From IMG/VR virus record IMGVR_UViG_3300036976_000011, positions 1-64,000 of that record: a stretch of DNA of 64,000 bases; one strand, given 5' to 3'. The position numbers and the translations under genes were made by a program. Positions 41,175 through 58,002 of the stretch are shown piece after piece. The notes beneath the pieces are model-generated. The model ran no database searches and had not been told where the DNA came from. It worked only from the letters and a program-made list of their open reading frames with translations. Each line of letters starts with the position of its first letter. The first letter of the stretch is position 1. The stretch comes from a virus. Taxonomy: Duplodnaviria; Caudoviricetes.

Positions 41175-41312
41175 GTCAGATTCTCTCCTCAAGCAAATCC
41201 CTAACTGCCTCTTTCGCCTCATCGGCCTCTAATCCAAGCGTCCAGAATAGCACAAAGGCGCGGTCAAGCTGTTCATGCTTCAGATATTTTTGAATCTGGT
41301 CAACTATCTCTA

Positions 41313-41403
41313 CGGTCCACCCTCGCGCCCACGGGGGAACCGAGAGACCGTAGTCTCTGGCGATTACCTGGTCACGGTCCACCCTCGCGCCCACGGGGGA
41401 ACC
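41313..41403 (-). CRISPR. mini-array: two identical 29-nt type I-E-like repeats and one 33-nt spacer
   Basis: GGTTCCCCCGTGGGCGCGAGGGTGGACCG at 41375-41403 and 41313-41341 (period 62); spacer TGACCAGGTAATCGCCAGAGACTACGGTCTCTC. Confidence 0.8.
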
Positions 41404-41600
41404 ACTAGGAATTTCCCGTGTAATGATTTCCCCGCGTGCATAGGGTTTTTAATGTCCAGTGTCCTCTCTGTGGCCCTCCCGTATTTTTCAACGGTACGAC
41501 ATCCACAGTCTTAGACACATTCACATTAAATTTGCAGACAATTGTCTCAGATGATCCGCTCTGACTCCGGCTAGCCGAAGCTGGAAGGCTTGTGCCTGCC
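41404..41600 (-). ncRNA. putative TnpB omegaRNA scaffold, continuous with the mini-array
   Basis: Overlaps the tnpB 3' end (GCCGGAGTCAGAGCGGATC...GGATGTCGTA pattern); contains CACGCGGGAA and CACGGGAA segments complementary to the repeat. Confidence 0.6.
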
Positions 41601-43052
41601 ATTTGCAGATTTAGCATCCCTAAACGCCATCTGTAGGAGCGGACCCGCACCCGACCAGCTTTCTTTCGCGTGGTCCGCGTTTAGGGTATCATTCTCGACA
41701 CATCTTGCTAGAAATGCCGAGTAAAGATCACGTTGAGCCTCTATGCCACATTCGCACTCGTGCCAACGTTGCGACAGAGGTTTTTTCTCTATCGTGCCGC
41801 AGCCGTGGCATATCTGGCTCAGTCTGGTACGATACGTCGAAAACTCCTCGACCCGACCGCCCGCGCCCTCAGTCTTGCGTCGCAACATCTCAACGAACGT
41901 ACCCGGTGCGCGCTTCCCGACCGATCTACCATACTGGCGCTGAAAGGCCCGGTAGGACAACTTTTCGGTCTTGACAACGTTGCCCATCCCAAGCACGCGG
42001 TTGGCAAGCCGGCCGTGCAGGCTCTTGCGGTACTCGGCCTGCCGGCGCTGCAACTCGGCCAGTTTCGCTTCCGTCTTGAGCATACGTTTGGACTTGTTGC
42101 GTGGTCTCTTGTCCTTGATGGCGCGCCCCTTTTCGTCGTAGCAGTCGGGGTTATTGGCACGCCGTTGTCGGTCCAACTTGCGCTGCAAAATCCGTATCTC
42201 GTGCTCGATGTCCTCAAGCTCTGCGCAGAATTGGACCAGAAAGGCGTCGTCCTCGCCTACTACTGCGACGGTGGACGGCCCAATGTCTAGGCCGACGACA
42301 GCGCCGTCAACTGTGGGATGTCGTTGTAGGGGATGGCCCTCTAGCACCAACTGGGCGTAGAACCGGTTGCGCCCGCTGATGACCTTGAGGATGATGCGCA
42401 CGTATTTGACCCGACAACCGAGGCCGTGGGCGTGGGTTGGGTCGTCCCGGTCCACGACGGCGGGTATTTCCAGGTCGCGCCACTGAACGTAATTGCCCTT
42501 GTCCCGCCAGCGCAAGCCCTGCAAGTTGGTGATGTTCTCCACGCTGCGCACCTGGCCGTACCGTTTGAATCTTGGCTTGCCGCAAAGGTCGCAGCGCCGG
42601 GTCTCTTTGGGTTTCTTGCACCTTCGACCATTCTTGCACGGCCTGTCGGTCCCAAACCGGTAACGGTTGACGCTCGTCCAAACACGAGCCGTAACAGCCT
42701 TGACCTCTTGGCTGCCCAGGTGGTCACGAATCCAGGAGTGTGTAAACTGTGTCGCCCAACTCATCAAATCGTATTTGCGTATGCCCACGGCTGCATCCGC
42801 TTGACGAAAGGCTTCTACCCGCGCCTTGTATTGTGCTTTTTGAGTAACCGTGGCGTCTTTCCCGTTTCTGCCCCTGGGCATCTTGCAGGCACGTCGGAAA
42901 GCCTTGGACTCGCGCAACAACTTCAACCGCTTCAGGCCCTCGCCCAATACGGCGTTGTGAACCTGGCGGGCGGTCTCAAAGCGCACCAGGAGTTTTTTTT
43001 CCTGACACGGCGTTGTCTTTAATGGCAATTCTAAAATAAATGTCTTGCTCAT
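41571..43052 (-). CDS. tnpB: TnpB RNA-guided nuclease (IS200/IS605 family), no tnpA
   Basis: RuvC-I VGLDIG, RuvC-II KTEKLS, CHGC..CECG zinc finger, RuvC-III QRDLYSA. All three catalytic acidic residues are present. Confidence 0.93.
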   Translation of the reverse strand: MSKTFILELPLKTTPCQEKKLLVRFETARQVHNAVLGEGLKRLKLLRESKAFRRACKMPRGRNGKDATVTQKAQYKARVEAFRQADAAVGIRKYDLMSWATQFTHSWIRDHLGSQEVKAVTARVWTSVNRYRFGTDRPCKNGRRCKKPKETRRCDLCGKPRFKRYGQVRSVENITNLQGLRWRDKGNYVQWRDLEIPAVVDRDDPTHAHGLGCRVKYVRIILKVISGRNRFYAQLVLEGHPLQRHPTVDGAVVGLDIGPSTVAVVGEDDAFLVQFCAELEDIEHEIRILQRKLDRQRRANNPDCYDEKGRAIKDKRPRNKSKRMLKTEAKLAELQRRQAEYRKSLHGRLANRVLGMGNVVKTEKLSYRAFQRQYGRSVGKRAPGTFVEMLRRKTEGAGGRVEEFSTYRTRLSQICHGCGTIEKKPLSQRWHECECGIEAQRDLYSAFLARCVENDTLNADHAKESWSGAGPLLQMAFRDAKSANGRHKPSSFG

Positions 43053-43059
43053 TCTCTGG

Positions 43060-43219
43060 CCTAACAAAAAACCAACCCCGTCGGTGCTTGTTCCTGTCAC
43101 AGAGTCAAGCCGGGGTTGGCTAGCATCGCCAGTCTGGCGCTATGCCTAAAAAACAAAAAGCTCCGACCTGACTAACTCTGTGACGATTCTATCGTATCAT
43201 GGTTCAAGCATAGTGTCAA
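43060..43219 (-). promoter_or_regulatory. tnpB promoter and structured 5' leader
   Basis: TTGACA-17-TACGAT (43191-43219); GTCACAGAGT/ACTCTGTGAC stem, GCATAGCGCCAG/CTGGCGATGC hairpin, CCAACCCCG/CGGGGTTGG pairing. Confidence 0.7.
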
Positions 43220-47397: not shown

Positions 47398-47883
47398 TCA
47401 CACCACAAAATCATTGCCTGGATAAATAGTTATCTCATGTGTCAGGCACTTGATTAGCGTTTTATACCAAAGATTGCCTATATCTGACGTGCACTCCTGC
47501 CCGTTATCCGCACCGGGCCAGCCCGCTGTCAAGAATGGAAATTCTCCGTTATGATGTTCGCCGGTGCAATGAAAATAGATTCCTAGTTCATATTTGAAAA
47601 ACTGAACGGCTGCACAAAATTGATAATCCGGGCTGCAAACTTCTACTATGCTCCCAGATTTGTACATTTGGGAAAAATCAATAGGATGCTCTGGCTGCAG
47701 CAGATAGAGCAAGCGGTAAAGAGCTTTTGGTGTATCTGGCACTGCACAGCTACCACATGGCATGGTTTTCACAGGACGATTACCATGCGCATAATCATGG
47801 ACTCTGTAGCACTGCCTGAATAATTCGAGTGGTTCTTCATTTGCGTCAACTAGTTTTTGAATGATGCGTAATTTTTTTAGCAT
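47398..47883 (-). CDS. hypothetical protein
   Basis: GAGG RBS; AT-richer. Confidence 0.6.
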   Translation of the reverse strand: MLKKLRIIQKLVDANEEPLELFRQCYRVHDYAHGNRPVKTMPCGSCAVPDTPKALYRLLYLLQPEHPIDFSQMYKSGSIVEVCSPDYQFCAAVQFFKYELGIYFHCTGEHHNGEFPFLTAGWPGADNGQECTSDIGNLWYKTLIKCLTHEITIYPGNDFVV

Positions 47884-47916
47884 TTCAAATGCCTCTCAAC
47901 CAGCGCCATTGCCCTG

Positions 47917-48081
47917 TCAACCTTCGAGAGGATATGCAGCGCCAGACTCCTCTAGCCAGCGCAGCACTTCAATTATCCCCTCCTCATAGCTCATGCCGGG
48001 AAACTTTGAGCCTTGGTCTATGCCTTCGGCTGCATCGTTGTAAAGTTGCTCGATTTCCTCTTTTGTCCTTATGATTTGCAT
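47917..48081 (-). CDS. small acidic protein
   Basis: AGGAG RBS; MQIIRTKEEIEQLY. Confidence 0.6.
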   Translation of the reverse strand: MQIIRTKEEIEQLYNDAAEGIDQGSKFPGMSYEEGIIEVLRWLEESGAAYPLEG

Positions 48082-48236
48082 GATATCTCCTGTACGGTTG
48101 GGGCGCGTCCTCACACTGTCGGCACGCGCCCCTTCAGTTGTTGTCCGACCAGTGCCACCGGTCGGGTGCGACAGCGCCGCCTCAATGGCGCTGCTAGTGG
48201 CACGTGACAGACTCAAACTGTCTCGGATTGAGGCCG

Positions 48237-48447
48237 CCTGCGATTGGGGAATTGAACCCGCACCTCAGTCCTTTATCCTAGAGCGAATCGCCAACGCTCC
48301 CGTGCCATATCCACTGCTGCCCAGGACGCACCAGTGCTCACAGCCCTTGTCGAATTATTGCACTGAGGCTAAAGCCGGCTTCGCCCCCGCTTGCCACCTT
48401 GACCAGGGTATGGCAATCGCAGTGGCAGATGGATGCGCCCTGGGCAG
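48237..48447 (-). ncRNA. structured ncRNA with 3' tRNA-like module
   Basis: 14-bp CTGCCCAGGGCGCA/TGCGTCCTGGGCAG, 9-bp CTGCGATTG/CAATCGCAG, CCTCAGT/ACTGAGG, GGGTTCAATTCCC T-arm. Confidence 0.6.
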
Positions 48448-48472
48448 TTGTGGATTTTAACGTGCTTGCGAA

Positions 48473-48562
48473 TGCGTCAGGACAGAATCGAACTGCCAAT
48501 GTTACCCAATCGGGACCGGGGTTACAGCCCGGCGCTACACAACCAATAGTAGCCTCTGACGC
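48473..48562 (-). tRNA. tRNA-Tyr(GTA), no encoded CCA
   Basis: Acceptor GCGTCAG/CTGACGC, anticodon loop CTGTAAC, long variable arm, TTCGATT. Confidence 0.9.
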
Positions 48563-48577
48563 ATGTGGGCTTTAACT

Positions 48578-48606
48578 AGGATAGCCCTATTTCCCTGACT
48601 TGTCAA
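48578..48606 (-). promoter_or_regulatory. sigma70 promoter for tRNA-Tyr and the downstream ncRNA
   Basis: TTGACA-17-TATCCT. Confidence 0.75.
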
Positions 48607-48704
48607 CGGCCTAGTACCGCCCGACGGGGGCTCGTGCAGGGAACAAGCCCCGTGACACCTTCATCGCCTTGGCACAGTATGTCGCCATTTGGTCAGTCGG
48701 TGTG

Positions 48705-48778
48705 TGGGACCGGCAGAAGTCGAATCTGCAACCTCTTGAGTCTAAGTCAAGCGCCTCTACCAATTGGGCTACGGTCCC
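48705..48778 (-). tRNA. tRNA-Leu(TAG) with short variable loop
   Basis: GGGACCG/CGGTCCC, CTTGA-CTTAGAC-TCAAG, 5-nt variable loop, TTCGACT. Confidence 0.88.
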
Positions 48779-49026
48779 ATGTGCTTGGTCTAGTACAATT
48801 CCACAATCCAGTTGCCTGAAGCAGAATCACACAACAGCATCCTGCCCAGAAACGTCCGTTCCCTCTCGTGCCGCAGCAGATCTTCTGCCACGCTGCCGCA
48901 CCTTGATATCGCAACAATTGTGTACTCATTGGCAAGAACGGTGTAATATTTGTTGTTGGCTTTTGCTTGATTGCTCAAGATTTGATTGACTGTAGTCTCC
49001 ATCTGGCTTCTCAATTGTGAAAGTTT

Positions 49027-49085
49027 GCCGGTTATTATTCTCTGCCGACCGGCGGCGGCGCATCTTCTACTCACACTAGTGGACC
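49027..49085. repeat. 59-bp direct repeat, copy 1
   Basis: Identical to 50750-50808. Confidence 0.95.
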
Positions 49086-49233
49086 TTAACTAGAATTGGT
49101 CCTGTATCTCATAGTGCCCGCGTCTCCCGTCCTGGAATTTCGTTTCAGAGGTCTAGTACCAATTTAAGCGATGGCCCAGGATACCGTCACTTCCGACACC
49201 CACGGTACAAGCGACCGGGCGAATTGGGTATGA

Positions 49234-49308
49234 TGGACGCAGCCAGATTCGAACTGGCGACTTCTGCATTTTCAGTGCAGCGCAACTACCAGGCTGTGCT
49301 ATGCGTCC
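49234..49308 (-). tRNA. tRNA-Phe(GAA), no encoded CCA
   Basis: GGACGCA/TGCGTCC, CTGCA-CTGAAAA-TGCAG, TTCGAAT. Confidence 0.92.
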
Positions 49309-49316
49309 AAGTTGCC

Positions 49317-49463
49317 GGCGGCTTGAGAATTGGTAGTATTTTGACCGCCTTCAGTATGACGACAGCGGCAGGCGTCCAATTGTTAACGATGTAGTTATCA
49401 CACACCGGTCATTTTCGCCGCCTGGTTCGCCAAGCCCGCAATACTACCAATTCTCAAGCCGCC
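49317..49463. repeat. perfect 24-bp inverted repeat enclosing about 99 nt
   Basis: GGCGGCTTGAGAATTGGTAGTATT / AATACTACCAATTCTCAAGCCGCC; overlaps the ligase stop. Confidence 0.9.
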
Positions 49464-50722
49464 TCCTCACGATCCACGAAATCTTCACTGTCTTTTAGGT
49501 AGCCCTCTAACAAGCCAAAGGTAAATGACTTGTGTTTGTAGAAGTGCGTACCGTGTTCATTGTCAACTCGAATAGCCACACCTTCACGGATATGGCTACT
49601 ATCTAGCACAGAAGGCCCGTCAATATAGCTCTCAATTACGGCGCGCAACCCTCTACCATCCAGGGTATGAAAACGCTGACTATACTCCGGTACATGATCA
49701 ATGCCAAGCTCATCGCAGCGTCGTTTTACATCGCGCCACGGGAGCTCAAATTGCACACCGTCCTCGTTTGCCTGCACGATACGATAGACAAATGCCTTGC
49801 ACTCCCCAGGTTCACAGCCGTAGGAATATATCATCTCGTCACCGTAGCTCTTTTTGACATCCCCGTCACGGAGCTTGCTGATGTTTTGCGGTTGCATAAT
49901 GGGCTCGTTTTGGCCAGCCCATCCGACAATCTCCATATAGACGACTTCGCCTTTGTGGAGATTGTTTTGTAGTCTTTCGACGGCCCTGTAACGAAAACCG
50001 TCGTTGCTATAATAAGTTGCGCCGTCATGGTGCTCAAGAATTACACGCCGCGTACCAGACAAATAGCGCCAAGCCATTTTGTGACTAAATCGAGCGCCAA
50101 ATCTATTCAGTGCTCGTTTCCACCACGGCAGCGGCATCTTATCCAGCACATGACCAAGTCGGTGACTCGTGCCGTGCAATTTTTCCGTGATCGTTATGAG
50201 TGATTCTGGCGGTATAATATCTGCTGCATCTCTGAACTGGTCAGTTTTAATGTGCATTCTAAACATGGTAGTTTCACGGCGATGTTTGATACTGCGCTGG
50301 CGCGCATGTCGCGTGGCTCTAGTGACATACTTATTACAAATTGGTACGCCATTAAGGCTATCAAACTCATCGCCTATCTTGAGCCTATCAAGATCATGAC
50401 CTGTAAATTCAAAGTATGACAGCGGCGCAAGAAACCCTTCGCTCTTTGCGCCACGGAATTTCTGTGCGCGCACGCGACGATTAGCTTCAAAAAAGCCACC
50501 CTCTTTTGCTCCCGTCTCTGGATTTGTGCGCCGAACTAGGTCATTGGATTGTGCAAATTGCTCGCTTAGTTGACCATCGGATCGAAAAAACACCATCAAG
50601 TCACCGTCTTGCGTATTCAGACCAACAACGACTTGATAGCCTAGTGCTGTGGCTAATTTTAGTCTGTCAGCATCTGGATGGGGTCGCGTATAGACTTTGA
50701 CAACTTTGGCTTTGTAGGTCAT
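49454..50722 (-). CDS. RNA ligase (Rnl2/DRB0094-like) with N-terminal OB fold
   Basis: HPDADRL, motif I TEKLHGTS, YMEIVG, REGVAIR, FYKHKS. Confidence 0.88.
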   Translation of the reverse strand: MTYKAKVVKVYTRPHPDADRLKLATALGYQVVVGLNTQDGDLMVFFRSDGQLSEQFAQSNDLVRRTNPETGAKEGGFFEANRRVRAQKFRGAKSEGFLAPLSYFEFTGHDLDRLKIGDEFDSLNGVPICNKYVTRATRHARQRSIKHRRETTMFRMHIKTDQFRDAADIIPPESLITITEKLHGTSHRLGHVLDKMPLPWWKRALNRFGARFSHKMAWRYLSGTRRVILEHHDGATYYSNDGFRYRAVERLQNNLHKGEVVYMEIVGWAGQNEPIMQPQNISKLRDGDVKKSYGDEMIYSYGCEPGECKAFVYRIVQANEDGVQFELPWRDVKRRCDELGIDHVPEYSQRFHTLDGRGLRAVIESYIDGPSVLDSSHIREGVAIRVDNEHGTHFYKHKSFTFGLLEGYLKDSEDFVDREEAA

Positions 50723-50749
50723 TTTTTCCACCTCTGAATAAGCATTCTC

Positions 50750-50808
50750 GCCGGTTATTATTCTCTGCCGACCGGCGGCGGCGCATCTTCTACTCACACT
50801 AGTGGACC
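50750..50808. repeat. 59-bp direct repeat, copy 2
   Basis: Identical to 49027-49085. Confidence 0.95.
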
Positions 50809-51544
50809 AGGGGAGACTTGAACTCCCTCGCGGGGACTATTTGCTAGCATTGTCATCCCCACTATTCTGTGACCTGCCAGTCACAGCACAACCGCTATCC
50901 CAAGAGCGGCAACTTCTGGCCCGTGTTGCCGGTTTTGCTATCGCACTCCGGCTCGTGCGCCCTGTTTGGCTGCGGGAACCAGCACGGGCGCGGTTGTTAT
51001 CCCTAATGTCCGTTAGCTTCCACCTACTCACCTGTGTTTTCGGCTTCACCCCCTCAAGCGCCCCGGTCAACACACAGAGCTTGGGTTTCACCACGGCCTT
51101 GATCATGGGCCACGGACTAATGCCCGCTACGGGATGTTGGCGCAGTTGGGAAGTCGAACCCACTTTGTACTACGGAACCCTCTCCGCGCCAATGTTGCCG
51201 CTCTGCCGTCATTGCTCTGGTGGGGCCGTGGCCTGAGCAGGCTTGATCGGTGATTCCCCGTCACGAACAGAGCAAACATTTTGTTAAAGTCAGCCCGTGG
51301 GCCAGGTCTTTCACCTGCCTAGCCACGTCTGGCACGGTCGGGACACATTCAGGACCGCTGTAGTGCGTGTCACTTCTGCTACAGTCGCCACGGGCCAACT
51401 GGCGCGGTAGACAAGTGCTCATCCACCGCCAGGGACACTCTACACACGGTCGGTGCGCACCATCTTGGGCTAGGGGCGGGTAGCATTCGCGCCCGCCACG
51501 CTGAGCCAGTTTCCGTGCCTTATAGGGGGGTAGAGTGCCCCTGG
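50803..51544 (-). ncRNA. large (about 740 nt) highly structured ncRNA region with two T-arm modules
   Basis: More than 15 GC-rich stems visible by eye, a GAAA tetraloop, T-arms at about 51137-51192 and 50803-50826, and no credible RBS-led ORF. Confidence 0.65.
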
Positions 51545-51996
51545 TGAGTGATGAACTATCGTTGACATTTCTTGCACATTTTCAAGCTCGGTCTTTCTTG
51601 ATAGAGAGCAGCCCGCCCATTATGAACACGCAAGCCACATTTTGTGTAATGTGCATGGACGCGCTCATGATAAACTCTACTCCCTTTTACAACGACGTAC
51701 TTTTTCATATTTTCCTCTCTCGCCCATCACTAGCCACACGAGCGCCAGCACGCGCAGGGTCTCAAGGCTGGTCAACGCGCCGTCCCAGGTCGTTGGACTG
51801 TGACGCCCGCGTGGCGACTGATGAATCAATCATCAAGAAGGTTCCGTAGAAACATGCTTGTTGAGCAAGCAGACAATGCGCTAATCCACCCATCCGCCCC
51901 TAGCGCCTGCATTGCGATAAACATTAGCAGACCGCCCCACAGAGACAGTATATAATTTATTGTTTGTTTAATCACCTTTTTTTCTCTCAATCCCTC

Positions 51997-52209
51997 TCAG
52001 CGAAACGCTATCAGGGAGCGATTGTCATACGTCCAGCATGACAACACACGCACGTGATCGCTCTCAATGCACAGCCTGGTAAATGCCTTAGCGTCATCAC
52101 GTGTGTCGAAGTCTGCCCGTGCTCTCCAGCCAGGGGAACCGTAGTTTTTTGGTGGTCTAACAAACGTTGCCCCAAGCTCTTCTGCCTCTTGCTCAAAATT
52201 ACCCTTGTT
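51997..52209 (-). CDS. hypothetical protein
   Basis: AAGGGAGG RBS; MINKGNF. Confidence 0.6.
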   Translation of the reverse strand, partial: NKGNFEQEAEELGATFVRPPKNYGSPGWRARADFDTRDDAKAFTRLCIESDHVRVLSCWTYDNRSLIAFR

Positions 52210-52214
52210 TATCA

Positions 52215-52435
52215 TTTGCCTGCCTCCCTTTTTCAACCCCTCTCAGTAGACCAGAACCGTCATCCTGGTCACTGTCCGGGTGACTACCGGAGGTACATTG
52301 CCTCGTCAGGCGCACAGACAGCCTGCTGATTTCCCGGCCCACTGAGAGGGATCGAATTTTTAAAGCGCGACCAGGGCATTGCCTCAATGTCATCCAATCT
52401 CTCTTGTCTACGTCAGCGCGATGGCCCTGGCCGAC
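52215..52435 (-). ncRNA. structured leader RNA with pseudoknot
   Basis: GCCAGGGC/GCCCTGGT, CCCTCTCAGT/ACTGAGAGGG, CCGG-TAGTCAC-CCGG loop pairing with GTGAC. Confidence 0.5.
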
Positions 52436-52441
52436 ATTAGA

Positions 52442-52470
52442 ATTATAGCACACTTTAACCAGTGTGTCAA
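52442..52470 (-). promoter_or_regulatory. consensus sigma70 promoter (twin of 57202-57230)
   Basis: TTGACA-cactggttaaagtgtgc-TATAAT. Confidence 0.9.
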
Positions 52471-52913
52471 GTGTTTCGTTTGAATAGTAGCCCTTCCCGG
52501 CGGCACTTGGCCTGCACGGCCCTTGGTGTCCTGTCCAGTTTTTTAGCCATCGCGGAGCATGTCATCGTCTTGTAAAATTTGTGCAGAAACTCAACCTGGT
52601 CTTTCTGCCAATACATCGAGCCAACGCCAACGCCAAGCCTCTGCGCCCGCTGATTTACTGCTATTGCAGACCGCCCTAGTTCCTCTGCAAGTTCACTCGC
52701 TGGCAAATGTTTATTTGCTAGCAACCTAGCGTCATCTTCGTCTGTCCATCGCTTGAGCTTACGCAGCCCAAGTTGCCTGCGCTTTTGTTTTATGGCTTCG
52801 GCAGTGCGGTTGAGTCGCTTGCCTATCTGTTCATCAGTACAATGACGCCAGTACCATTTTAGGTATCGGGTTTCAAGGGAGGTCCAGGATTTGTTCGTTT
52901 TCATGTGTAGCAC
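52467..52913 (-). CDS. triple Myb/SANT-like repeat DNA-binding protein
   Basis: Three WTxxE/D...L...IG/LA..LxRT..AI..K/R...LG repeats. Confidence 0.75.
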   Translation of the reverse strand: MLHMKTNKSWTSLETRYLKWYWRHCTDEQIGKRLNRTAEAIKQKRRQLGLRKLKRWTDEDDARLLANKHLPASELAEELGRSAIAVNQRAQRLGVGVGSMYWQKDQVEFLHKFYKTMTCSAMAKKLDRTPRAVQAKCRREGLLFKRNT

Positions 52914-53638
52914 CGCACTTCTGGAAATTCAGCGGCAAAGCGGTTGAAACCTTCTAAATTCTCACACTTGCTTCGAGCTAGACCGCCGTAATCTGCCATC
53001 ATTCTTGTGACCCTGGCAGTAGTACGTACTTGCAAGCCTTGCTCCTTGTATAGATTCAAAAGCGGCAGGTTGTGCTCTGAAATATACGCCGCCAGGTCCA
53101 GGAGCTCCCACTCCATGATTGGACAACACCGGTATTTACTATCAACATATTTAAAAATAGTTGGATGGGGCTGTCCTTTCCAGCGGCTTGACAATGTTCG
53201 TTCTCTGTCCGCGCTTTCACCTTTAGATAGCCCCCAGTACCAACCGTCCCAATATTCACGCTTTGTCATAGTTTGTAAGTCCCATTGCCCCTTATCTCTA
53301 CTCTCTTGCCATGATTCAGAATTTGTAATATTAAGCGTCTGTACAATGGTTAATTCAATCGGCCATTGAGCCAAGAACGTCTCTATGACTTCCTGAAAAT
53401 TGTGTATCCACCATGATTCCTCTGAGGCAAGAAAGTACATTGGTATTTGTGGAGCAATTTGGTATATCATGTGTGCTAGGCAAACAGATTGTTTGCCAAA
53501 GGAGACTGAGACATACGCTCTTGGAGCTAGCCTGAGCATTTCCTCAATACCAGACAGAGCAAAATCTAATCTGTATCGCCTCTGCCGCAATCGAGCATAA
53601 AGCCTTGCTTCAGCCATTTGCCTTTCAAATATCTTCAT
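52901..53638 (-). CDS. cysH: CysH/PAPS-reductase-like protein of type IV-B CRISPR-Cas
   Basis: YVSVSFGKQS (PP-loop variant), WGLSKGESADR, CCPIMEW...DLAAYI..HNLP.L.LY. Confidence 0.85.
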   Translation of the reverse strand: MKIFERQMAEARLYARLRQRRYRLDFALSGIEEMLRLAPRAYVSVSFGKQSVCLAHMIYQIAPQIPMYFLASEESWWIHNFQEVIETFLAQWPIELTIVQTLNITNSESWQESRDKGQWDLQTMTKREYWDGWYWGLSKGESADRERTLSSRWKGQPHPTIFKYVDSKYRCCPIMEWELLDLAAYISEHNLPLLNLYKEQGLQVRTTARVTRMMADYGGLARSKCENLEGFNRFAAEFPEVRCYT

Positions 53639-54041
53639 TGCGTCGCCACTCCCACAAAGCTATTGCCAAAGCTGCCTCTACCGTTAGCCCAGAAACACAG
53701 CCGATCATAGGTATTTGCACTTTCTGCGCAGCGCGTAGCGACCTTGGCAATCCATTTGATTCACCACCAAGCACTATCGTCGTCACCTCGGACCAATCCG
53801 TTGATTCTATTGAGTGCTCGTAATAGGTTTCAAGAGCCAATAGGCCATACGGCAACGGCCAATCAGATAGCGTCTCCAGATCAACTCTATCCTTTGCCTT
53901 GAAAAGATTTCCGGCCAAGAGGGCGCTTCCGCAGTCCAATAACAAAAGCCGAGACACACCAAATGCTTCTGCGGTACGGTAGGCTCTATTCAGGTTCCGA
54001 TTTACTTGATAAAGTAGAACGTCCACCAAATACCTCGTCAT
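53625..54041 (-). CDS. minimal SPOUT (SpoU/TrmL-like) RNA 2'-O-methyltransferase
   Basis: NRNL.RAYRTAEAFG, IVLGGESNGLP, VQIPMIG...GLTVEAALAIALWE. Confidence 0.8.
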   Translation of the reverse strand: MTRYLVDVLLYQVNRNLNRAYRTAEAFGVSRLLLLDCGSALLAGNLFKAKDRVDLETLSDWPLPYGLLALETYYEHSIESTDWSEVTTIVLGGESNGLPRSLRAAQKVQIPMIGCVSGLTVEAALAIALWEWRRNEDI

Positions 54042-54525
54042 TCATAGCACGCCACGGGTGCTTCTTTCCCCTTGGCCTTTGCGCCATTTCTTTGGCCCAT
54101 CTGCGTCGCTGTTCCCACCATTTTGGCGAGCGATTATAAATCACGCCGCGCAAGTTATCAGGCGTGTATCTATACACAGTAAACTCAGATACACCAAGCT
54201 TGCTGGCAACTTCACAGCACCGCTTCCTTTGAACCAAGCGCATGTCAATAATTGCCTCGGTTGCATTCTGATAACCCAGCATCATCGCTTTCCTATCGGT
54301 CTCAGTTACGCTACTTCTGTTATCGTGCTTGTGAGCACTTTTGTCTATAGGCAATCCAAATAACTTTCTCCAATTGAAAAGCGCCCGTGTAGACACACCA
54401 AGCACGCCTGCTATCGTGCCCCACGAGCACCCCTGCTCGCGCATTCCGGCGATTACATCTTTGACCGGTTCTTCAAATTCACTCTCTATTCTATTCCACA
54501 ATTTTTGTCTCGTGGCAATGCTCAT
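53986..54525 (-). CDS. double HTH protein
   Basis: SWGTIAGVLGVSTRALFNWRK and CEVASKLGVSEFTVYRY. Confidence 0.7.
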   Translation of the reverse strand: MSIATRQKLWNRIESEFEEPVKDVIAGMREQGCSWGTIAGVLGVSTRALFNWRKLFGLPIDKSAHKHDNRSSVTETDRKAMMLGYQNATEAIIDMRLVQRKRCCEVASKLGVSEFTVYRYTPDNLRGVIYNRSPKWWEQRRRWAKEMAQRPRGKKHPWRAMNDEVFGGRSTLSSKSEPE

Positions 54526-55262
54526 CCTGGAACCGCCAAGCGTCTTTGGTGCTCAGGCCGGTAATAAGATGGTCTAAGACCATAATGCGCAATGTTGAAT
54601 GGCTTGAACTCGCCGTGTTGCTGGATGAGTTCAAGCGCGTCCTCTTTTGGCACACCACGCGTCAACTCACCATTACGCCAGAGCGACCAATTTTCCTGCC
54701 AACTTTCAACTGTCCAGAACACGCGCCCCCACCCCTGACTTGCTTTCTTTCCTATATGCGTCATGGTGCTAAGAAGCGCCTCAATTTCGCCTCTATCACC
54801 AATGCAATACCAATGCACGCGCTCGGCTACCCGCGCAAAGACCGGCATGTGATAAGCCCGATATTTGCCTTGTTCAACGATAACCTTCCCGCGTCGCGTG
54901 CCAAAGTCTACCAGGTCTGCGTACTGCGTGTCAAATCGCTTATTCCAGTGACTTGTGTCCTCTGCGATCCACCACGGCTGAGGCTGTGCCCACGAACACG
55001 CAAAATACCAGTCAGGTGTACCATGGTTGATGATTTTGAGCGGCATGTGAATCCCGCGCAGGTTCGTCCTGACACCGCCCGGCAGCGTGGCCTGCTGTGG
55101 ACCGTGTGCTAGCCTATGCGCCTGATACCACAAGAGACCGTCTAGTGGCAACCACTGGTCACATATTGGATTCGTGCGGAATCGCGCCGTGACACGCAAT
55201 GGCTCGTAAGCTTTACCGTAAGGCATTGAGTAGCTCCCGGATATTGTCAGCATGGCTCTCAA
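54522..55262 (-). CDS. csf3: Csf3 (Cas5-like RAMP), type IV
   Basis: PLRVTA, LPLDGLL, YFACSW, G.YRAYHMP, WYCIGD..EIE.LL....HIGKK.SQGWGRV, RP.Y. Confidence 0.88.
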   Translation of the reverse strand: MRAMLTISGSYSMPYGKAYEPLRVTARFRTNPICDQWLPLDGLLWYQAHRLAHGPQQATLPGGVRTNLRGIHMPLKIINHGTPDWYFACSWAQPQPWWIAEDTSHWNKRFDTQYADLVDFGTRRGKVIVEQGKYRAYHMPVFARVAERVHWYCIGDRGEIEALLSTMTHIGKKASQGWGRVFWTVESWQENWSLWRNGELTRGVPKEDALELIQQHGEFKPFNIAHYGLRPSYYRPEHQRRLAVPG

Positions 55263-56184
55263 GATGGCTCATGTAGCGATTGCCAAGCGGCAAGTCAACG
55301 TCTTTTCCCGTTGGCGCGATACGTGGATTTATCTCTATCCACTTGTCGAAGCTGATAGAGACTTTGCCATGCCCTGTGCCGGACTTGCCACCGATGTACG
55401 GCCTGCGCCCAAACTCTGCCAGCGTCACAGCGAATGCTTCAAATTCTACGTCTGTCACATCATCAAGCGCAATTTCCCAAAAGAAACGTGTGCCTGCCGC
55501 CAGCGTCTCGACCTGGTATCTCATTTGCTGCTTTTGGCCCGTTTTTTTTACCACATCCTGGTCTGTACCGGTTTTGGCGCGCTCATCTGCCGCCTTGGCC
55601 TCAAGCAAGCCACGTACCTCTGGCGCTATCAACTGACGTAGCTTTTCGTCTTTCTCATCGTCCTTGCGCGTGAACGCTTCGCGCTGGCACAAATCCCACA
55701 CCGAGACGAGCTCGCCGTCTGTGAAACGATCCGGCAGAATCCATGCAGTTTCTTCGCAAATCGGGATGACCTTACCGAATTTAGCCTTCCCAGGCAACAT
55801 CTGATTCCCACACGCCGCGCCAAAGAGCGCCAGAAGTGGGATAGCCTCGCGCCACTGCCGCGCCTTGTCAATATCAAGACCGCGGGAACCACCTTTTTCC
55901 AACGCGCCACCAGAAAAGAGCATGTAATACGCTGCCAGGCTCAAACCATGCACCTCTCCGTTTTCGTTCACGCCATAGCCAAGCTGACGTAGCATGTGGT
56001 ACATTCCAATGTCGCGGAAAAGTCCCCGCATCGAGTTGCCGCTAATAATTGGCACGATCTCTACCGTACCGTTACCTTGCGCTACCTTTTCGCGTCGCAG
56101 CATTGAGTTGATACCGTGTGTCTCTCCGATGTGCGAGATGCTGGTTAGCGCCGTAACGACGCCCTCAAAAATGTACGTGTGCAT
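55213..56184 (-). CDS. csf2: Csf2 (Cas7-like backbone), type IV
   Basis: LTSISH, VPIISGNSMRG..R, LFSGG.L, PL.ALFG, L.GK, IGGKSGTGHG. Confidence 0.92.
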   Translation of the reverse strand: MHTYIFEGVVTALTSISHIGETHGINSMLRREKVAQGNGTVEIVPIISGNSMRGLFRDIGMYHMLRQLGYGVNENGEVHGLSLAAYYMLFSGGALEKGGSRGLDIDKARQWREAIPLLALFGAACGNQMLPGKAKFGKVIPICEETAWILPDRFTDGELVSVWDLCQREAFTRKDDEKDEKLRQLIAPEVRGLLEAKAADERAKTGTDQDVVKKTGQKQQMRYQVETLAAGTRFFWEIALDDVTDVEFEAFAVTLAEFGRRPYIGGKSGTGHGKVSISFDKWIEINPRIAPTGKDVDLPLGNRYMSHLESHADNIRELLNALR

Positions 56185-56585
56185 TATGCCTCCTCAAATA
56201 GCGGAGCGTCTAGCGCCGCCTCTAGCTCATCTTGTTCTTTCCGACGTGCCTTGTACTCATCTTGTGCGTCCTGATTGCGTACGCGCACCATGAGCACGAG
56301 CAATATCGTTTCGTCCCTCATCAATTTCAAAATTGATCTATCCCGCCCCGAGTTTAATATCTTATTGGCTTCTACCTTCTCTGCTTTTGTCTTGCCGACG
56401 TTGGCATTAAGATTCAAACAAAGAGAGCTGACGAACGTCCCCAGGCTGCTCGTGTACGCTGCACTCCTCACCTGGTCCTCGAACTGTTGCCATATCGTCG
56501 TTCGGTAACGGCTCTTGTAATCTGGTGGTACGCCGCGCCAAATTATCCACAGAAACTCTGCCGCCTCTTGATGCTCTGGTGTCAT
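56184..56585 (-). CDS. cas11: Cas11-like small subunit, type IV-B
   Basis: Helical protein ...IWQQFEDQVRSAAYTSSL..F...L..MRDET..LV..VR between csf1 and csf2; AGGAG RBS. Confidence 0.78.
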   Translation of the reverse strand: MTPEHQEAAEFLWIIWRGVPPDYKSRYRTTIWQQFEDQVRSAAYTSSLGTFVSSLCLNLNANVGKTKAEKVEANKILNSGRDRSILKLMRDETILLVLMVRVRNQDAQDEYKARRKEQDELEAALDAPLFEEA

Positions 56586-57195
56586 CTTTGCTCCTTTGCG
56601 CCAGGAATAGCGCCAATTGAAAGAGCAAGCCACCGCGCTTGCTCTTGATCCCACTCTCCAAAGTCCACCACTGTTCCACGCCAAACTGGCGAACTCTGTG
56701 CTGTACGTAATCACCTGTCTCGATTTCCTCTTTAGAAAATTGGGCGTGGAGGGATTCAACTAATGTCAGAAGCTCTTTTAATTCCATTGGCTGGACAAAA
56801 AGAGATTGCTCCTCAAACTGCACCCACCCACACGTTGCACCTAGCGGGTTCCGCCGCGCCCTAAAGACAATATGTTTTTGACCACTTTCTGCTATCGTGG
56901 CTAGCTCTGGAAAAGGCACACCCAAGAGGATGCTTTGCATGTGTTGCTTATCAGCCTTACTAAGTGGTATCCACATACCGCTGACAACAAAGTGAGAGTA
57001 GTTGCGCATGCGCTGGGGCTTGTCTTTACCAACCAACGCAGCAAGCTCTGCGGAGCGTTCGTCAAACCAAAACAAACAACTGTCACATACACCATCACCA
57101 TCAAGCAGTTTGTCATGGTCAACAAATGTGGGCTTGACCCACCTGTTGAAATCAGTCATGTCATCTGATTCATTACCGCAAAATCTACACAGCAT
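56407..57195 (-). CDS. csf1: Csf1 (Cas8-like), type IV
   Basis: CRFCG..TF.DHD.L..VCDSC, MRNYSH, P.L..IAESGQKHI.FRA, FSKEEI.TG.Y. Confidence 0.85.
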   Translation of the reverse strand: MLCRFCGNESDDMTDFNRWVKPTFVDHDKLLDGDGVCDSCLFWFDERSAELAALVGKDKPQRMRNYSHFVVSGMWIPLSKADKQHMQSILLGVPFPELATIAESGQKHIVFRARRNPLGATCGWVQFEEQSLFVQPMELKELLTLVESLHAQFSKEEIETGDYVQHRVRQFGVEQWWTLESGIKSKRGGLLFQLALFLAQRSKDDTRASRGGRVSVDNLARRTTRLQEPLPNDDMATVRGPGEECSVHEQPGDVRQLSLFES

Positions 57196-57201
57196 GTTCT
57201 A

Positions 57202-57230
57202 ATTATAGCACGCCTTAACCAATGTGTCAA
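57202..57230 (-). promoter_or_regulatory. consensus sigma70 promoter, probably leaderless csf1 mRNA
   Basis: TTGACA-cattggttaaggcgtgc-TATAAT, with the ATG 6 nt after the -10 box. Confidence 0.9.
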
Positions 57231-57520
57231 CTCGTCATACATAACTCATACCAACCCCAAATTTCCCACCTGGTAGCATCCTGTGAGACTCAATATTTCA
57301 GCGTTCCAGCCAAAAATATCAAGCTCGACTCAAAGGTTTGCTTAAGATTTTTAGGCCCTGGCTTAATAATTTTGAGCACGTCGCCAAAATTGCAACACGG
57401 GAGAGTCGCGCCAGTGGATTTTGCAGCCGCTCGTGAACAGAATGGCGCTGAAACTGAGGCTTACACGGTGTTTTTACAGTTTTGAGAGACTGGGTGTAAT
57501 TGGAGTTGTTCTATCTAATT

Positions 57521-57754
57521 CTACTCGTCTACCCCACCCAGCAACCGCTCCAATAATACTAGTTCATTTTTGGCGTCGTGTTTATCCATCAGTGCCTTTT
57601 GCTGTGCTTGCTGTAATAGTGCAGCGTCTTGCTCCAGTTGCTTCTGGCGCTCCTGTAATGCTAGCCTATCAAGTTGCAACTGGTCCAGCACAGCGTCAGC
57701 CGCTACGATGTCAGCGCGGGCCTTATTTGCGAGTTGTTCTAGTTGCTCTCTCAT
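57521..57754 (-). CDS. coiled-coil protein (tail-fibre assembly?)
   Basis: Coupled downstream of the fibre gene. Confidence 0.6.
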   Translation of the reverse strand: MREQLEQLANKARADIVAADAVLDQLQLDRLALQERQKQLEQDAALLQQAQQKALMDKHDAKNELVLLERLLGGVDE

Positions 57755-58002
57755 ATCTTCGCCGTGCTCAGATTTGTTCTGATGCCAGGTGTCACCGCTG
57801 TTGTGATAGTATCCATGTTGGCCGACGTGGTGGTGAACATGGCTGCAGTCAATCCGTCGTCAAAGTCCTCGTCGGTCACACTAGCCAGGTCCAGCGCCAC
57901 GTATTTGTATTTCGCTACCAGCCACGCCTCATAGGCCGCCAGCATCGTTCCATACGCTTGACGACATTCCAGAATAGCCGCCTGTTTATTCGCTTCTGTC
58001 AT
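57751..58002 (-). CDS. hypothetical protein (tail region)
   Basis: AGGAG RBS. Confidence 0.6.
   Translation of the reverse strand: MTEANKQAAILECRQAYGTMLAAYEAWLVAKYKYVALDLASVTDEDFDDGLTAAMFTTTSANMDTITTAVTPGIRTNLSTAKI

Follow-up and report, generated by a model that had tools for sequence, protein, structure and literature searches.

What does a type IV-B CRISPR-Cas complex do for a phage, and why should its genes travel with that of a predicted methyltransferase? Type IV-B is alone among CRISPR-Cas subtypes in having a solved complex but no known function. In the Mycobacterium complex a Cas7 filament is assembled on heterogeneous RNA and no nuclease is present (PMC7937560), the CysH-like partner was called the key unknown in a 2021 review (PMC8175902), and the 2025 classification lists no mechanism for the subtype (PMC12669027), the occurrence of which in viruses is already known (PMC10848311). 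We addressed this question on a stretch of 64,000 nucleotides (hereafter the window), which is the first 64 kb of the 90,407-bp virus record IMGVR_UViG_3300036976_000011, a phage genome rated complete, with 127-bp direct repeats at both termini, the DNA of which was detected in a wetland metagenome. Here the effector genes csf1, cas11, csf2 and csf3 are followed, in this order, by genes for a double helix-turn-helix (HTH) protein, a minimal methyltransferase of the SPOUT class, a CysH-like protein and a triple-HTH protein (Table 1). These genes make up a genuine type IV-B operon of a phage, clearly bounded and belonging to a recurrent variant. With moderate confidence, and judging from sequences and predicted structures, we read the variant as one which would carry its own RNA-modifying accessory cassette, acting on RNA held by the Csf complex or on RNA paired to RNA in that complex.

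The evidence that carries this reading is the company kept by the SPOUT gene. Gene context played no part in the searches for it, which were all made with nothing but the SPOUT sequence. A protein search returned about 100 homologues of 128-146 aa with 42-80% identity, and in six out of six homologue contexts the SPOUT gene stood beside a PAPS_reduct (phosphoadenosine phosphosulfate reductase) gene and a Csf3 gene, the order of which varied. A further 29 loci came from viral and metagenome contigs scanned with a SPOUT alignment. When the neighbours were classified with family profiles built from the window's genes, every one of the total of 35 SPOUT loci, which form 29 clusters at 95% identity, was found to lie beside a CysH-like or a csf gene. 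Among the 21 non-redundant loci with at least 900 nt visible on both sides, a CysH-like gene was situated within 700 nt of SPOUT in 20 (in the remaining one at 811 nt), and csf genes were carried by 19. At least three gene orders were noticed, most loci having SPOUT between csf3 and cysH; the window's own order, csf1-cas11-csf2-csf3-(x)-SPOUT-cysH, and csf1-(cas11)-csf2-cysH-(x)-SPOUT-csf3 are the main ones. A tblastn search of 50,697 phage and 72,556 plasmid records gave no member of the SPOUT family, an absence which may explain why genome-based surveys missed it. Full-text searches of the literature showed no paper linking SpoU/SPOUT with type IV-B or CysH-like genes, and the SPOUT-carrying variant, as distinct from type IV-B itself, is not described in the literature searched. 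Linkage of SPOUT to type IV-B in other genomes, on which an earlier note on this DNA had staked its proposal, was thus surveyed and is present.

Furthermore, SPOUT moves from one Csf backbone to another in the company of one CysH lineage. Where Csf2 shares 53-72% identity with that of the window, CysH identity was 55-74% in loci with SPOUT (L019, L007, L023, L009) as against 26-43% in the roughly 35 loci without it. On the CysH tree the SPOUT-linked proteins fall in few clades, and the SPOUT label required 8 changes where shuffled labels needed 22, with not one of 500 shuffles as low; in this count L040 was scored as lacking SPOUT and is really a truncated SPOUT locus. The Csf2 tree needs at least 7 changes of the same label, 4 of them forced by well-supported branches. 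That the SPOUT and HTH genes are unrelated passengers without any functional tie to type IV-B could be argued from the nearest Csf2 relatives (L003, L061-L074), which lack SPOUT (in L003, with a Csf2 70% identical to the window's, csf3 is followed directly by cysH), and from the triple-HTH gene, which is unique to the window's phage among the loci examined. However, a CysH-like or csf gene adjoins SPOUT in all 29 lineages, in more than one gene order, the presence of SPOUT follows a CysH lineage, and the phage and plasmid records mentioned above yielded no family member; we strongly disfavour this explanation.

By sequence and by predicted structure, the SPOUT protein is a putative enzyme that matches ribose 2'-O-methyltransferases in fold and retains their catalytic arginine. 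It scored 44.5 bits against PF00588 (cut-off 29.7). Its open reading frame (ORF) is open from ATG 54041, and GTG 54026 was chosen as the likeliest start because it is preceded by GAGG and agrees with the 133-aa homologues. An AlphaFold2 (AF2) model was obtained with a mean predicted local distance difference test (pLDDT) value of 90, and the top Foldseek matches of this model were TrmH (1v2x), a TrmL-like Cm/Um34 enzyme (5co4) and RlmB (1gz0), at template modelling (TM) scores of 0.80-0.82; all of its nearest solved structures are RNA 2'-O-methyltransferases. Across 29 homologues the residues N16, R22, T23, G92-G93-E94 and L119-T120-V121 (numbering of the 138-aa ORF) are invariant. In the HMMER alignment R22 stands opposite the motif-1 arginine R41 of Thermus TrmH, which we take to be the catalytic residue, and R22 and E94 align with the R-T and G-x-E of TrmH. 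The phage protein thus shares with the SpoU/TrmH family (TrmH, TrmL/YibK, RlmB) the PF00588 domain, a predicted fold at TM 0.8, motif 1 (N...R-T), motif 2 (G-G-E) and IPM-G. It differs in being only 133 aa long, shorter than TrmL, and in a family context consisting exclusively of CysH-like or type IV-B loci. We also compared it with individual members. The TrmL model TIGR00185 gave 22.9 bits against an equivalog cut-off of 190.6 and the TrmH equivalog 28.6 bits against 227; as its scores stay far short of all NCBIfam equivalog cut-offs, it is no orthologue of TrmL, TrmH or RlmB. A prediction of a complex between the CysH-like protein and SPOUT scored 0.00, to which we give no weight either way. 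One relative, P0102, bears an extension of about 190 aa without a Pfam match.

The CysH-like protein scored 38.7 bits against PF01507 (cut-off 22.5), its family profile matches PAPS reductases (E 1e-18), and it belongs to the PAPS-reductase/DndC/IbrA superfamily. Residues S46, G48, K49, S51, E141, S142 and R145 are invariant in the alignment, the family keeping the PP-loop S-x-G-K-[DQ]-S and an E-S-x-x-R motif. It is not a bona fide PAPS reductase CysH, for which NF002537 gave 37.5 bits against a cut-off of 154, and no C-terminal cysteine is conserved across the family alignment, which agrees with the view of this partner as an ATP alpha-hydrolase and not a sulfur reductase (PMC8175902). The double-HTH protein is, by sequence similarity, a recurrent accessory gene product of these loci: homologues were found in L016, L019, L061 and L063, and a 72-aa protein of L011 resembles the C-terminal half of the window's protein. 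The triple-HTH gene, which is overlap-coupled to cysH, had been taken for a Myb-repeat gene belonging to the system. Pfam places its repeats in HTH families and not in the Myb family, the SANT/Myb-like character being seen at pattern level only, and since no homologue turned up in any related locus examined its membership in the system was not borne out.

Table 1. Features of the window, with corrected gene starts, in order along the minus strand.
Feature	Position	Strand	Description
Upstream promoter-like site	57202..57230	-	TTGACA-17 nt-TGnTATAAT, 12/12 match, sigma-70-like
csf1	56407..57195	-	Type IV large subunit, 262 aa, N-terminal CxxC...CxxC
cas11	56184..56585	-	Small subunit, 133 aa, PADLOC Cas11_1_IV E 6e-29 over 5-119 of 122
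csf2	55213..56184	-	Cas7 backbone subunit, 323 aa, PADLOC Csf2_0_IV E 2e-81, TIGR03115 E 4e-20
csf3	54522..55226	-	Cas5, 234 aa, PADLOC Csf3_0_IV E 1.2e-43, TIGR03116 E 1e-11
Double-HTH	53986..54525	-	179 aa, PF13384 and PF01527 near residues 24-56, second HTH near 100-123
SPOUT	53625..54026	-	Minimal SpoU/TrmH-class methyltransferase (predicted), 133 aa, PF00588 E 2e-11
CysH-like (CasCysH)	52901..53638	-	PP-loop enzyme (predicted), 245 aa, motif S-F-G-K-Q-S, PF01507 E 1e-9
Triple-HTH	52467..52904	-	145 aa, three HTH repeats of about 45 aa, phrog_323 E 2e-28
Downstream promoter-like site	52442..52470	-	Second perfect site, directly after the last stop codon, at the operon's downstream end
Non-coding element	50900..51470	-	About 250 nt
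tRNA and ligase cluster	48472..50797		tRNA-Tyr, tRNA-Leu, tRNA-Phe and a 447-aa RNA ligase (PF09414, phrog_968)
TnpB/Cas12-like gene	41571..43100		509 aa, PADLOC Cas12u2 E 1e-18
Mini-array	41312..41403		Two I-E-like 30-nt repeats, 32-nt spacer

The operon itself is well defined. The minus strand carries nearly all genes around it, and eight consecutive ORFs fill the stretch 52467-57195, neighbours overlapping or abutting by 1 to 176 nt; all eight genes of the unit that the earlier note had drawn from csf1 to the last gene are present and overlap-coupled. The upstream promoter-like site has its 3' edge 6 nt before the csf1 ATG, so that the csf1 mRNA may be leaderless. Given the perfect promoter-like sites on both flanks and the gene overlaps, the eight genes look like one transcription unit. 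The downstream site faces a gene-poor stretch of about 1.6 kb without convincing ORFs. Metatranscriptome contigs (run X2) match parts of csf1/cas11 and of cysH at full identity; they are strandless and may reflect DNA carry-over, and we do not count them as proof of expression, nor do we read anything into the parts they leave uncovered. A blastn comparison of the locus with phage records gave no match.

The four Csf genes are genuine. Residues 3-203 of Csf1 match PADLOC Csf1_0_IV (E 1.3e-22), although there was no match to TIGR03114, and the type IV-A Csf1 chains 7xg1_A and 8rc3_G were the top two and the sole meaningful Foldseek matches of its AF2 model (pLDDT 81, below 50 in the tail). Residues 211-262 form a predicted disordered tail, outside the family profile, which overlaps cas11. 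The start of cas11, ATG 56585 with an AAGGAG site, lies out of frame within the 3' end of csf1 and creates the 176-nt overlap. This arrangement (56407-56585) recurs, both frames aligning in about 25 related loci, and within it the cas11 frame, at 55-72% identity, is better conserved than the csf1 tail at 31-54%. The best solved relative of the Csf2 family profile is the type IV-B Csf2 of 7JHY (E 3e-37), a type IV-C Cas7c chain being equally good (4e-37) and type IV-A Csf2 chains giving about 1e-16. The start of csf3 was taken as ATG 55226, with 55253 or 55262 as alternatives. Searches with Pfam, NCBIfam and PADLOC profiles gave no match to Cas6, DinG or Cas10 among the eight operon proteins, no member of the Cas6e family was detected in the phage genome (a whole-genome scan for dinG, cas1 and cas2 was not made), and no CRISPR array adjoins the operon, the sole CRISPR-like repeat pair of the 90-kb genome lying 11 kb away. 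The locus therefore has what marks type IV-B, namely Csf1, Cas11, Csf2/Csf3 and a CysH-like gene with no DinG, Cas10 or Cas6 in the operon and no adjacent array, and on the lack of cas6, dinG and a neighbouring array the profile and repeat searches agree with the earlier description.

Further evidence on the accessory cassette comes from the slot between csf2, csf3 and cysH, which holds varied other genes in the sister loci. A gene for a protein tyrosine phosphatase (PTP)-like phosphatase is found in four SPOUT loci (L009, 7477-8004; L020; L029; L031), and SPOUT-phosphatase fusions occur in both domain orders (P0081, P0103). Where cysH is missing, the slot may hold a radical-SAM (S-adenosylmethionine) enzyme (L004:7585-9126, L101:7712-9253) or a 160-aa class-I methyltransferase resembling RrnaAD (rRNA adenine dimethylase)/Trm5 (L083:4167-4649). 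Cas6 takes the slot in L043 (6975-7694), L056, L082 and L103. Double-HTH proteins are found in L061, L063, L080, L081 and L084, and after cysH in L016 and L019, and HTH-like proteins of 70-90 aa adjoin some SPOUT loci.

We argue that, with a protein of the SpoU/TrmH class, a conserved catalytic arginine and a recurrent linkage to type IV-B, an RNA-modification machine is the best reading of the operon, and this part of the earlier interpretation stands. In such a machine, the Csf1-Cas11-Csf2-Csf3 complex would hold RNA on its Cas7 filament, as the Mycobacterium complex does (PMC7937560). SPOUT, using SAM, would methylate the ribose 2'-OH of the RNA held by Csf or of RNA paired with it, and the CysH-like protein, as an ATP alpha-hydrolase, would perform a coupled adenylylation-type step on the same substrate. 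The phosphatase genes adjacent or fused to SPOUT in sister loci suggest a substrate phosphate that needs prior removal, and the PTP-like enzyme may take it off first, in the manner of RNA repair by healing and methylation. For the HTH protein, regulation of the operon or help in nucleic-acid binding is the probable role. The RNA would end up chemically marked and not cleaved. In bacterial Pnkp/Hen1 RNA repair, RNA ends are healed, 2'-O-methylated and sealed. The likeness to that system is an analogy of working only: a phosphatase, a ribose methyltransferase (as predicted) and an ATP-using adenylylating enzyme come together in sister loci, and an RNA ligase and tRNA genes lie near the operon in the window. 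On the other hand, there is no homology, the methyltransferase has a SPOUT and not the Hen1 Rossmann fold, no kinase is present, the phosphatase is of PTP-like type and is missing from the window, and ATP is used by a PP-loop protein and not by a ligase.

Several observations weigh against this reading. A scan with a Csf2 alignment, for which a closer subset of sequences was used since the diverse alignment proved too variable for pattern scans, so that the census is biased toward the window's Csf2 clade, gave 45 viral loci and 20 from metagenome-assembled genomes, 63 of these being new. Just 2 of the 63 had a SPOUT gene, one on a contig already known and the other encoding a larger SpoU protein of 253 aa. 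SPOUT is therefore rare among type IV-B loci and not essential to type IV-B function in general; the family is specific to these cassettes, yet present in only a minority of them. In L025, L035 and L104, SPOUT is paired with an IbrA-like long CysH (PAPS_reduct+DUF3440) and there are no detectable csf genes; when L035 was checked for hidden ones, none was found, a Snf2-like helicase fragment and the IbrA-like protein being there instead. It is therefore the CysH-like protein, and not necessarily the Csf complex, with which SPOUT is most tightly associated. These three loci (L025, L035:5874-7952, L104:1522-4362) also share an uncharacterised protein. Motif 3 of SPOUT reads S-G-L-T-V in the family, its G-L-T-V standing opposite the S-L-N-V of TrmH in the HMMER alignment, and because this motif (G-L-T for S-L-N) departs from the TrmH consensus the activity is inferred and not certain. 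Lastly, DndC and similar relatives of CysH work on DNA, and the substrate shared by the two enzymes need not be RNA.

The last point leads to a different account, in which the CysH-like protein would act on DNA as its DndC/IbrA relatives do, or the substrate would be a protein, SPOUT methylating something other than RNA ribose. Membership of the CysH-like protein in that superfamily speaks for it, as does the pairing of SPOUT with IbrA-like proteins outside csf loci. Yet the nearest solved structures of SPOUT are without exception RNA 2'-O-methyltransferases, and we know of no SpoU/TrmH-class enzyme that acts on DNA. Moreover, the type IV-B complex binds RNA (PMC7937560). Taken together, we consider a DNA or protein substrate highly improbable, and prefer RNA modification.

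A bolder form of the RNA-modification reading may also be drawn by analogy. The Csf ribonucleoprotein could be an RNA-guided or RNA-scaffolded modification machine, the Cas7 filament siting a target RNA for site-specific 2'-O-methylation by SPOUT and for an ATP-dependent step by the CysH-like protein, as a counterpart, in bacteria and phages, of box C/D guide-RNA methylation. The accessory slot, with its SPOUT, class-I RNA methyltransferase, radical-SAM and phosphatase genes, would then offer swappable RNA-editing heads, and the adjacent arrays and Cas6 genes of some sister loci would supply the guides. In this strong form we hold the idea to be rather unlikely.

Which RNA might be the substrate? 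Candidates are phage RNA, host tRNA or rRNA, and CRISPR RNA. The earlier note had pointed to tRNA: the complex would present phage or host tRNAs to SPOUT and the CysH-like protein, 2'-O-methylation in the anticodon loop would block anticodon nucleases that depend on the 2'-OH, and the nearby ligase would repair such cuts as occur. Three tRNA genes and an RNA ligase do lie 1.7-4 kb downstream of the operon, beyond the gene-poor stretch, and the closest folds of SPOUT include TrmL, an enzyme that methylates position 34. Likewise, L010 has a T4 Rnl1-like ligase with four tRNAs, and L009 has a Ro60/TROVE gene nearby. In the survey of tRNA linkage that the note had called for, 3 of 11 long loci with SPOUT, as compared with 1 of 43 loci without it, had tRNA genes nearby (p 0.02 by Fisher's test, with no correction for the relatedness of the loci), and to this extent the linkage was seen. 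However, the association comes from few, phylogenetically related loci, most SPOUT loci have no tRNA nearby, and the window's type of ligase did not recur, there being no homologue of it in any related locus. SPOUT is moreover not a TrmL orthologue, and the need of a Cas7 filament for tRNA is left unexplained. We therefore regard protection of tRNA as quite unlikely to be the function of the cassette.

Between the ligase cluster and the operon there is a non-coding element, which is 77% identical to L008:820-1080, a stretch beside tRNA-Met on a further phage contig with a SPOUT-type IV-B locus. When 47500-58000 was scanned against Rfam, tRNAs alone were reported; the element has no Rfam family, and a profile made from it found L008 only. 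The deepest metatranscriptome contig of this 10-kb stretch covers 50919-51469, at a depth of 13.8 against 2-5 elsewhere, with adapter sequence at 51469. The element is probably an abundant structured RNA.

A second candidate for the substrate is CRISPR RNA (crRNA). In a setting of counter-defence or conflict between elements, the Csf complex could load I-E-like crRNAs, from the host or from the mini-array, and SPOUT could methylate crRNAs or their precursors, for example blocking Cas6e processing, which depends on the 2'-OH, or marking guides. This is in line with the presence of an I-E-like mini-array in the phage, with a Cas6e gene located two genes past csf3 on one SPOUT-type IV-B contig, and with the four loci listed above that have Cas6 in the accessory slot. 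Not all relatives lack arrays: in L040 cysH is followed directly by at least five 37-nt repeats (L040:994-1304), and in L080 an I-E-like mini-array of two repeats lies immediately upstream of csf1 (L080:124-217). The mini-array of the window, however, which the earlier note had offered as an alternative source of crRNA for type IV-B, has a rival owner. It lies 170 nt downstream of the TnpB/Cas12-like gene, and this pairing is repeated on the SPOUT-type IV-B contig L023 (L023:7875-9689), where an array of seven copies of a similar repeat comes 180 nt after a distantly related TnpB; the window's mini-array may thus belong to the TnpB-like effector. In addition, no Cas6e was found in the phage genome, and the spacer of the mini-array has no exact match in viral contigs. 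A role on crRNA appears quite improbable to us. Thus, of the earlier interpretation the RNA-modification reading is retained, while presentation of tRNAs by the Cas7 filament, anticodon nucleases as the threat, cooperation of the ligase, membership of the Myb-labelled gene and use of the mini-array by type IV-B stay conjectural.

Two known systems place the phage operon in context. The type IV-B locus of Mycobacterium sp. JS623 (7JHY; PMC7937560; PMC8175902) has the same four effector genes in the same order and a CysH-like accessory gene, and shares with the phage operon the absence of adaptation genes, of a nuclease and of an adjacent array. The phage operon differs in that it adds the double-HTH, SPOUT and triple-HTH genes, that it resides on a lytic-type 90-kb phage genome and not on a plasmid, that its CysH-like protein comes from the lineage co-occurring with SPOUT, and that its cas11 overlaps csf1 out of frame. 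Skermania phage SPI1 (KR011061, L002, Orf40-44), the sole Csf2 match among the 50,697 phage records (35% identity), has the canonical order csf1-cas11-csf2-csf3-cysH, but without a SPOUT or HTH insert, and its five genes are annotated as hypothetical. As a cultured phage it is a possible laboratory model for phage type IV-B.

That SPOUT travels with one CysH-like lineage makes the function of type IV-B experimentally addressable, as one can ask which RNA is modified, at which position, and whether ATP and the CysH-like protein are needed. The phosphatase fusions and the independent recruitment of other modifying enzymes of RNA type to the same slot point the same way. If this reading is true, type IV-B would be a CRISPR effector which phages have re-purposed for the chemical marking of RNA, and not for cutting it.

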